Assembly: GCA_045657125.1 (NCBI GenBank)
Contig: JAZOSM010000002.1
Location: 1 to 43,319 of the forward strand
Length of the DNA: 43,319 bases
Reading direction: 5' to 3'
DNA from: Eubacteriales bacterium
GTDB taxonomy: Bacteria; Bacillota; Clostridia; Oscillospirales; SIG627
The stretch's first letter is position 1. The number at the start of each line of letters is the position of its first letter. The notes under the pieces are model-generated. The model was given only the letters and a program-made list of their open reading frames with translations, ran no database searches and was not told the origin of the DNA. Position numbers and translations under genes: made by a program. This document shows, in pieces, positions 1,067 to 11,779 of this stretch.

Positions 1067-1274
1067 ATCCAATCCGAAGGATTGGTATGTAATCGCCGTT
1101 AGGCGTATGTAATCAGTTCGCTCTGCGAACTGTATGTCATCAAAGCATTAGCTTTGTATGTTTTTTCCTTCGGATTGATTACATACCGACTTTGTCGGAT
1201 TACATCCACGGCGTTGCCGTGATTACATACATTTTGTTACGAAAATGATTACATGCAACACTTCGTGTTGATTT
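1067..1274. repeat. Hairpin-ladder element, copy B (linker variant TATGTAAT / ATTACATA)
   Basis: Hairpins at 1069-1085, 1094-1105, 1114-1132, 1141-1156, central TCC-TTC-GGA, 1186-1198, 1207-1221, 1230-1247, 1256-1270. Linkers TATGTAAT/TATGTCAT at 1086, 1106, 1133 and ATTACAT(A/C/G) at 1178, 1199, 1222, 1248. Confidence 0.9.
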
Positions 1275-1296
1275 AGTGGCGGATTTCTGCTATACT
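1268..1296 (+). promoter_or_regulatory. sigmaA-type promoter whose -35 is the right end of element B
   Basis: TTGATT(1268-1273)-17 bp-TATACT(1291-1296) with extended -10 TG; RBS GAGGTG then ATG at 1316. Confidence 0.6.
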
Positions 1297-1315
1297 CTAA
1301 TTAAGAGGTGAGAGT

Positions 1316-1558
1316 ATGAAAGAAAATCTTTTGCTTAAATATGCCGAACAGTTGGCATTTCAAATTGAAATTTTATGCAAATCTTTAGAACGCAAAGACA
1401 ATTCTAATGTGATTTTTCAAATTCGTAAATCTTCTTCGAGTGTCTTTGCAAATATTACTGAAGCTCAATATCCTCAAAGTTTATCCGATATGCTTTCTAA
1501 ATTCAAAATTGCTCGTAAAGAGTGTGTTGAAACAGAAAGTTGGTTAAAACTTTTATAG
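1316..1558 (+). pseudogene. Four-helix-bundle protein (23S rRNA IVP / TIGR02436 / Avd-like family), C-terminally truncated
   Basis: QIRKSSSSVFANITEA...DMLSKFKIARKECVETESWLKLL matches the family consensus (QLxRSxxSxxANIxE...FxxKLxIAxKExxETxYWLxLL). Stops at 80 aa, lacking the last helix expected in ~110-120 aa members. Confidence 0.8.
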
Positions 1559-11330: not shown

Positions 11331-11406
11331 AGGGATGTAGCCAAGCGGTTAAGGCACCAGACTTTGACTCTGGCACTCGTGAGTTCAAATCTCGCCATCC
11401 CTGCCA
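11331..11406 (+). tRNA. tRNA-Gln (anticodon TTG)
   Basis: Acceptor AGGGATG/CATCCCT, D-arm GCC..GGC, anticodon arm CCAGA-CTTTGAC-TCTGG, T-loop TTCAAAT, encoded CCA; 76 nt. Confidence 0.97.
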
Positions 11407-11442: not shown

Positions 11443-11627
11443 ATCCAAGCCGCAGGCTTGGCATATCATCACGACGCAGTCGTGTATATCATCAAGGGCG
11501 CATTGCGCCCTGGTATCTCATCACGCGCCAGCGTGCATTTCCTGCGGAATTGATGATATACAATGCTTCGCATTGATGATATACCGCAACAAGTTGCGGA
11601 TGATATACACGGCTTTCGCCGTGATTT
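11443..11627. repeat. Hairpin-ladder element, copy C
   Basis: Hairpins at 11445-11461, 11470-11484, 11493-11513, 11522-11535, central TTCC-TGC-GGAA, 11561-11575, 11584-11599, 11608-11623. Linkers CATATCAT/TATATCAT/TATCTCAT then ATGATATA x3. Confidence 0.9.
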
Positions 11628-11779
11628 ATGCAAGAGTTCGAATTCATACGCAAAACTGCTGAAAATATCTTTTTTGATTGATGTGTTCCCTTCGGGAATA
11701 TGATGCCGCTACGCGAATGATGTCACGTTGGATGACGATTCTATTCCGTTTTTTGTGCAGATTGACTGCTTGTTTTTTG

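Follow-up and report, generated by a model that had tools for sequence, protein, structure and literature searches.

A ladder of short repeated units, followed by a gene of the PF05635 family (23S_rRNA_IVP, here IVP), makes up a real and conserved cassette that is specific to this protein family. It was identified in the window, which is the whole stretch of DNA analysed, an entire contig of 43,319 bp from a genome (G000) of 1.99 Mb in 185 contigs, with 47% GC and an estimated completeness of 77%. The reading preferred here, which is given about an even chance of being right, is of a cassette complete in itself, made up of terminator, ladder, promoter and IVP gene and similar to the intervening sequences (IVS) of 23S rRNA, in which the repeated units are the ligand of an IVP pentamer.

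The ladder with a gene (copy B) is found in a locus with the order His_Phos_1 gene, palindrome, ladder, promoter-like site, ribosome-binding site, ORF, hairpin and zf-HC2 anti-sigma gene. The window also contains copies A and C and a remnant of another type. The features are the following:

302-991: His_Phos_1 phosphatase gene, by Pfam.
1032-1065, no strand assigned: bidirectional terminator-like palindrome 3' of His_Phos_1, with 20-nt arms, 100% complementary, flanked by an A run and a T run.
1067-1275, + strand: ladder copy B, read directly.
1067-1166, + strand: left array of copy B, with hairpins at 1069-1085 (h1), 1095-1104, 1115-1131 and 1141-1156.
1085-1094, 1105-1114 and 1132-1141, + strand: left-array units of copy B, followed by a half unit (1156-1161) and a T run (1161-1166).
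1166-1177, + strand: centre of copy B, complementary in 12/12 nt to 1070-1081 (5' arm, loop and part of the 3' arm of h1).
1177-1275, + strand: right array of copy B, with GATTACATAC-like units at 1177-1186, 1198-1207, 1221-1230 and 1247-1256 and a tail ATTTA.
1186-1198, 1208-1222, 1232-1247 and 1256-1270, + strand: right-array hairpins of copy B, with loops T-rich on the + strand.
1268-1296, + strand: sigma-70-like promoter candidate from a consensus scan (-35 TTGATT, 17-nt spacer, extended -10 TGcTATACT).
1305-1310, + strand: ribosome-binding site GAGGTG, read directly.
1316-1558, + strand: PF05635 (23S_rRNA_IVP / S23p / Avd-like) ORF of 80 aa, cut before helix 4.
1579-1616, no strand assigned: terminator-like hairpin 3' of the truncated ORF, with 17-nt arms, 94%, flagged by the consensus scan.
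13-196, + strand: ladder copy A, without gene, at the contig start, with units GTATATCATC / GATGATATAC.
11443-11630, + strand: ladder copy C, with A-type units and without gene, directly 3' of tRNA-Gln (11331-11406) and its terminator.
11672-11745, + strand: remnant left half of a GTGATG-unit ladder type, by eye against the ladder of contig C68.

Copy B begins immediately after the T run of the palindrome and comprises four GTATGTAATC-like units followed by four GATTACATAC-like units and a partial fifth (GATTT) at the 3' end, the units being separated by distinct, perfect small hairpins. The loops of its left array are of the G..A kind on the + strand. In the 23 copies of A/B-type ladders the pairing of h1, h3 and h4 reaches 98.8%, 83.9% and 95.1%, respectively. 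The centre and positions 1070-1081 would form a long-range helix, P1, closing the left array; this helix is 90.2% paired in the same 23 ladders and the loop base of h1 covaries with the centre (AU in 14, CG in 5). Folded as RNA, copy B has a z-score of -6.8 and copy A one of -5.5. No Rfam family was identified for the ladder, either at gathering scores over the window, where the sole match is one tRNA, or with E values up to 10 over positions 1-1700. Neither copy A nor copy C has an IVP gene, as expected from the earlier note, which had regarded both as gene-less versions; downstream of copy A there is a separate promoter-like site (229-257) and then His_Phos_1. The start of the window is already within copy A. 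The last hairpin of the left half is followed by a T run in both copy A and copy B (91-103 and 1141-1156, respectively) and is flagged as terminator-like on the + strand.

The link between ladder and gene is not the single adjacency on which the earlier note had rested it. In G000, IVP-like genes were identified by local tblastn on contigs C2, C37, C131, C77, C120 (continuing on C48), C68 and C90, and a ladder is found directly upstream in 6 of the 7 loci retaining their 5' end; the seventh, on C90, has a long AT-rich inverted repeat upstream. For the counts that follow, a ladder call required 6 or more units with 3 or more hairpins between units, a threshold that misses decayed, cut and AT-rich forms. 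Matches to PF05635 are present in 25 of the 40 genomes of relatives (26 of 41 with G000) and in 26 IVP loci of the relatives the detector calls a ladder upstream in 18, about 22-23 being recognised by eye within 330 nt. The public set comprises 80 loci, all of them from gut metagenome-assembled genomes (MAGs) of Clostridia (Acutalibacteraceae, Oscillospiraceae, Christensenellaceae and similar). Here a ladder was called upstream in 53 of 74 loci, downstream in 1 of 76 and far upstream in 0 of 69, although the loci are kin and these association counts, like the preceding ones, overstate independence. The proposal of the earlier note that element and protein may form a unit is supported by this enrichment, the absence of which would have spoken against it. 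When G000 was tiled, 46 of 11346 windows were called by the detector, about half of them being true ladders. No conserved downstream partner gene was identified, the largest cluster comprising 7 of 90 loci.

The AT-rich arrangement is a third upstream form, a long imperfect inverted repeat with short units and without interleaved hairpins, seen on C90 of G000 (~430-1000) and in loci L013, L023, L169 and L175.

At least ten different unit sequences were identified among the ladders upstream of IVP genes, and the ladders of different IVP clades use different units. Unit-hairpin-unit patterns had 0 matches in two complete genomes without IVP gene and 3-38 matches each in three genomes with IVP genes, with the exception of one match of one pattern in G028; the reversed-pattern controls gave 0-1. 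Some observations count against the cassette reading: the one array of G028 is of a type that its sole IVP gene does not match; G018 contains ladders and no IVP match, this genome being only 63% complete; and at least 4 of the 7 IVP genes of G000 are truncated, frameshifted (twice) or split beside ladders that look intact, so the upkeep of the ladder may not need the protein. The split gene of G000 is found on C68 (2750-2983 and 8130-8572, the second stretch being in locus L163), where the 3' part precedes the ladder and the 5' part by 5.4 kb on the same strand, with an overlap of ~100 nt between the two parts; the arrangement is suggestive of a circular permutation or of an integration event within the gene.

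The conserved structure is best seen in the C77 family, named for contig C77 of G000, in which 45 ladders were aligned. Its seven small hairpins are 96.2% paired, with double changes in 26 of 31 pairs, and the covariation of the hairpins scores 0.542, compared with 0.151 for shuffles and no more than 0.075 for slid controls. This covariation shows the ladder hairpins to be selected structures. The units of this family are invariant (AGT..TATT in the left half, AATA..ACT in the right half), with the central dinucleotide alone varying, and by alignment they are conserved as sequence, beyond mere complementarity. What is conserved is a long-range helix between the centre and a segment made of the first unit and the 5' arm of hairpin 1, which is 97.9% paired overall and paired in 45 of 45 ladders at the variable dinucleotide. 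A rung-paired ladder was considered as the selected fold in these 45 ladders and rejected: rung pairing amounts to 85.7%, with 82.9% in shuffles, most outer rungs have a mismatch at the variable dinucleotide, and the complementarity at this dinucleotide is 18-27 of 45 for any pairing of U2/U3 (left) with R2-R4 (right).

The loops of the C77 family are polar, T..C in the left half and GCAA, GTAA, GAA or GCA in the right half. In a set of 27 ladders covering many types, 19 have halves of opposite polarity and 2 have halves of like polarity, 6 being undecided, so that GNRA/GNA-type loops are found on opposite strands in the two halves, and each half looks built for a different strand. The unit on the strand of the G..A loop is approximately AYWTCAY in every ladder type, by eye. 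In the right half, G-T mismatches number 14 and A-C mismatches 3, which is counted in favour of a single-stranded structure. Since rung pairing has no register specificity and the loop polarity is opposite, the ladder is best regarded as a pair of inverted arrays, both with 4-5 modules, a module being a unit plus a capped hairpin. The arrays are divergent in 14 ladders and convergent in 5, the A/B types of the window being convergent; their orientation relative to the gene is therefore not fixed, which is a further point against the cassette reading.

A pure RNA processing element, with arrays pairing like IVS arms for RNase III or another nuclease to cut and with IVP as unrelated cargo, is an unlikely explanation of these structures. 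In its favour, the arrays are mutually complementary by construction and fold far more stably than shuffles. However, the rungs lack register specificity, the sequence of the units is invariant within a family to a degree that pairing does not require, and the opposite loop polarity of the halves is not expected if a single strand folds.

PF05635 (TIGR02436) is a large orphan family that is not known to have a function outside diversity-generating retroelements (DGR). The ORF of the window matches it with an E value of 4.2e-14 and 53.1 bits, above the curated cut-off of 33.8 bits, over profile positions 5-79 of 106. A relative of 114 aa, 85% identical over the 80 shared residues, extends for 34 further residues, so the gene of the window is 3'-truncated and has lost helix 4; the DNA similarity to relatives stops at 1557. 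Of the four-helix-bundle ORF described in the earlier note, the family membership stands and the complete bundle does not, these being 80 aa without helix 4 where the full protein has ~110-120 aa. The AF2 model of the intact C77 paralogue (115 aa) has four helices with a pLDDT of 93.6, and Foldseek gave TM values of 0.88-0.94 to 2rld (an entry with 5 chains), 0.79 to 2gsc and 0.78 to the Avd protein of DGR. Passages of two publications describe the oligomers: the Xanthomonas S23p is a homopentamer (PMC4990558), and all five protomers of Avd contact one RNA stem-loop, with flipped-out bases of the RNA in the crevices between protomers (bioRxiv 10.1101/2023.10.23.563531).

Outside the ladder clade the PF05635 genes present a simpler arrangement. 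The family was identified in 55 of 301 sampled Bacillota genomes and is also present on cyanobacterial and Bacteroidota plasmids. In the Bacillota-wide sample of 28 loci, short tandem repeats precede the IVP start codon, and the detector calls one ladder, which by eye is a hairpin-free tandem repeat. The non-ladder set comprises these 28 loci and four plasmid loci (two from Nostoc, one from Bernardetia and one from Monoglobus), n=32. In 19 of the 32 loci Tandem Repeats Finder (TRF) identified a period-7 array no more than 130 nt upstream; a looser tandem-repeat score was discarded because 3 copies were reached even in 164 of 330 control windows. The plain arrays have a median of 4.8 copies and 12 of 20 are between 4.0 and 5.7, although with a range of 2.9-54.9 copies five is the mode and not a rule, which weighs against the cassette reading. 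Another 49 period-7 repeats were identified elsewhere in these loci, a figure that is not a clean background since many of them are downstream arms or further arrays. Arrays are found on both sides of the ORF, as inverted complements, in 18 of the 32 loci, and in 18 of 31 plain-type loci the flank-to-flank duplex has z < -4 relative to shuffles, the test being one of shuffle z-scores because 22 of 27 far windows also reach -30 kcal/mol. For the loci sampled, these counts show plain heptamer arrays to be the wider rule for PF05635 genes outside the ladder clade.

Three of the sampled loci are within 23S rRNA genes and one is within an RNase P RNA gene. In the latter (L150, 1229-2003) a bacterial RNase P class A RNA gene contains a PF05635 ORF and heptamer arms, with 775 nt of DNA against the 367 positions of the model; this is an intervening sequence outside rRNA. 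According to a passage of PMC4990558, one 23S insertion is a selfish element with a 28-bp terminal stem cut by RNase III, and one IVS has 3 tandem heptamers and 1 degenerate copy before the S23p start. The arms enclosing the ORF in plain relatives, the sites within 23S rRNA and RNase P RNA genes and this cleavage of an IVS stem are the remaining points that favour RNA processing. Many heptamer units are Shine-Dalgarno-like (AGGAG, GAGGT, GGTGAT), as seen in L136, L138, L139, L143, L148 and L150; those of Nostoc and Bernardetia have no such resemblance. The same three forms (ladder, AT-rich repeat and heptamers) were identified in IMG/VR contigs, and no DNA match was found in the phage collection.

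In the reading of the ladder and gene as an IVS-like cassette, the ladder would be the form that paired inverted short-repeat arrays beside PF05635 genes take in gut Clostridia (Oscillospirales, Christensenellales-type). The plain form, with about five tandem heptamers on each side of the ORF as inverted arms, is built like the 23S rRNA intervening sequences, in which the two arms pair and RNase III cuts them. The ladder form has its two arrays upstream of the gene and a small GNRA/GNA-capped hairpin between successive units. The 4-5 units per array may be the cognate sites of an IVP pentamer in the shape of a ring, each protomer taking one unit; these sites would probably be on RNA, as binding is most likely to single-stranded nucleic acid, to RNA over DNA, with the hairpins looped out as spacers. 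The cassette would behave as a selfish, IVS-like element, and the gene-less ladders would be ORF-less derivatives, spread or at least persisting, that are served in trans.

The nearest known systems are the 23S IVS with an S23p ORF (Leptospira and Coxiella type) and Avd. The former shares with the cassette the PF05635 family, the inverted arms of short repeats (heptamers before the ORF in the passage of PMC4990558), a sporadic and selfish-looking distribution and ORF-less versions, and the three 23S loci of the sample are true insertions of this kind. The cassette of the window, in contrast, is outside rRNA genes, between a phosphatase and an anti-sigma gene; its two arrays are upstream and do not enclose the ORF (no downstream units were identified at ladder-type IVP genes, with a mean of 1.30 against 1.16 in far windows of 50 loci); hairpins are interleaved between its units; and its gene has its own promoter-like site and terminators. 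With Avd it shares the four-helix-bundle fold (TM 0.78). The Avd pentamer grips a structured RNA with all five protomers (bioRxiv 10.1101/2023.10.23.563531); its ligand is a single stem-loop, whereas the one proposed for the ladder is a repeat array. Furthermore, no RVT_1 match was identified in G000 (77% complete) or in 3 of 5 relatives (G003, G009 and G037, the last 100% complete), and no template/variable repeat pair was seen. A more distant comparison is TRAP, a ring homo-oligomer that reads a row of (G/U)AG repeats in leader RNA, one per subunit. This likeness is one of possible working mode, binding on the ladder side being conjectural; the folds are unrelated, and the ladder arrays are inverted pairs and dispersed copies.

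The gene-less ladders are dispersed and multi-copy. There are about 15 ladder copies in G000 and several in each relative; those without a gene on contigs C29, C52 and C71 of G000 keep a promoter-like tail. DNA of ladder and IVP gene is found in up to 11 places in one complete genome with a single IVP gene, and G027 has 38 pattern matches on at least 12 contigs for 4 IVP genes. That gene-less ladders far outnumber IVP genes goes against the cassette reading. Arrays of the AGTGATATT type were seen at many contig ends of G027 (C17:10-40, C28:34-108, C35:34-108), so these repeats seem to break metagenome assemblies.

Such a distribution would also fit a mobile element acting at the DNA level, in which the arrays are multi-site terminal inverted repeats, the gene-less copies are MITE-like, IVP is a DNA-binding accessory and host enzymes act. 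Terminal inverted repeats with several binding sites each are found at the ends of Tn7 or Mu and in foldback elements. This explanation is held to be improbable, with evidence on both sides. The ladder and IVP gene of copy B match repeatedly in the 40 relatives, but the flanking host genes have no DNA match there. The multiple copies of G027, many of them at contig ends, are in its favour, as is the depth of 697-927 over the start of the ladder (bins 1010-1150) against ~11 in the flanks in a DNA run. At 15 of 23 diverse loci there is a tRNA gene directly upstream that points the same way, the tRNAs being different ones, as against 0 of 37 loci of the C77 family. One tRNA cluster bears a ladder and IVP gene in one species and a decayed ladder of another type, alone, in a second species; in the window the GTGATG-type remnant abuts copy C, so two ladder types are in tandem behind tRNA-Gln. 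The frequency of IVP pseudogenes points the same way. Against it, no transposase or recombinase is linked to the cassette, PF05635 being the sole linked gene in the neighbour-gene clustering of 90 loci; no reverse transcriptase was identified in the genomes named above; no target-site duplication was noticed by eye at the ladder ends, and no empty site came to light, the flanks not aligning between species; divergent and convergent arrangements of the arrays coexist; and the hairpin covariation and choice of loops point to a single-stranded state. A parallel on the DNA side is REP/REPIN with the RAYT transposase, where dispersed short palindromic repeats have a cognate low-copy protein gene flanked by repeats. 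Ladders are likewise dispersed palindromic repeats with each sequence type paired to a cognate low-copy gene; however, their partner protein has no nuclease or transposase fold, and they are composite arrays of ~200 nt where REPIN are single hairpin pairs.

The initiation region of copy B was found as originally read, with the terminal TTGATT, 17-nt spacing, TGcTATACT, ribosome-binding site and ORF 41 nt past the ladder (ATG at 1316), the direct reading and the consensus scan being in agreement. The -35 TTGATT is built from the 3' arm of the last hairpin and the tail; it is conserved in 19 of 23 aligned A/B-type ladders and the remaining 4 have GTGATT. The promoter match by itself is not significant, with 7 promoter-like sites against 4.0 +/- 1.9 in shuffles. 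As this box is in the last module, binding of the units might also feed back on the IVP gene. Most ladder types have a promoter-like site between ladder and IVP gene; the ladder would then be outside the main IVP mRNA, which counts against the preferred reading. Exceptions are L025, L117, L120 and the first copy of L116, a subtype where the IVP start is ~25 nt past the ladder, with a ribosome-binding site and no -10 between, so the ladder would be within the transcript or would itself hold the promoter. In three RNA runs (Logan contigs, without ends or strand) the IVP gene of the copy B locus is uncovered. Contigs of RNA libraries contain the ladder starts of other copies, DNA carry-over being possible. 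The centres of C77-type ladders present a leftward candidate promoter, TTGAAA-17-TGaTATTTT, by eye.

A host regulatory module, that is, a portable terminator, insulator and promoter block that drives IVP as one of several genes by chance, would agree with ladders lying between a terminator and a promoter-like site and with gene-less copies preceding other genes, but is very improbable given that the enrichment is specific to PF05635 genes, that the gene downstream of copy A has its own promoter-like site 30 nt past the ladder, and that some copies are between two tRNA genes with nothing to drive.

The ladder is filed here as new, with no Rfam match and no published description found, because its place, layout and copy number differ from those of the nearest known systems, S23p-bearing IVS and Avd. 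Full-text searches of the literature found neither the ladder nor a general link of repeat arrays to PF05635, the exception being the heptamers of the one IVS of PMC4990558; stem-loops bound by Avd may be treated in Table S3 of the bioRxiv paper on DGR. A conserved, lineage-specific array next to its genes gives PF05635 a concrete candidate ligand and leads to a hypothesis open to laboratory test, namely that five units serve five protomers. If true, it would unite 23S IVS, the insertion in RNase P RNA, tRNA-adjacent cassettes and a new, strongly covarying structured repeat, one that is common in gut Clostridia, absent from Rfam and seemingly disruptive to metagenome assembly.

A broader proposal is possible but doubtful. 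PF05635 proteins would be dedicated partners of short-repeat arrays across bacteria, the pentameric ring reading about five tandem heptamers, and protein and array together would be an unrecognised class of selfish elements in or beside stable-RNA genes. Such a class would settle at 23S rRNA, RNase P RNA and the ends of tRNA clusters, and of its forms the ladder of gut Clostridia would be the most elaborate and the one that has proliferated furthest. The cyanobacterial heptamer repeats of the STRR kind may be kin; a title by Vioque from 1997 reportedly places STRR in RNase P RNA. The Avd of DGR would be a domesticated offshoot retaining the ring that grips RNA. Finally, the terminator hairpins between tRNA genes and ladders share a loop motif close to TTTGTCTAC with different stems, seen on C131, C37 and C29 of G000 and in L003, L007, L018, L022, L030 and L173.
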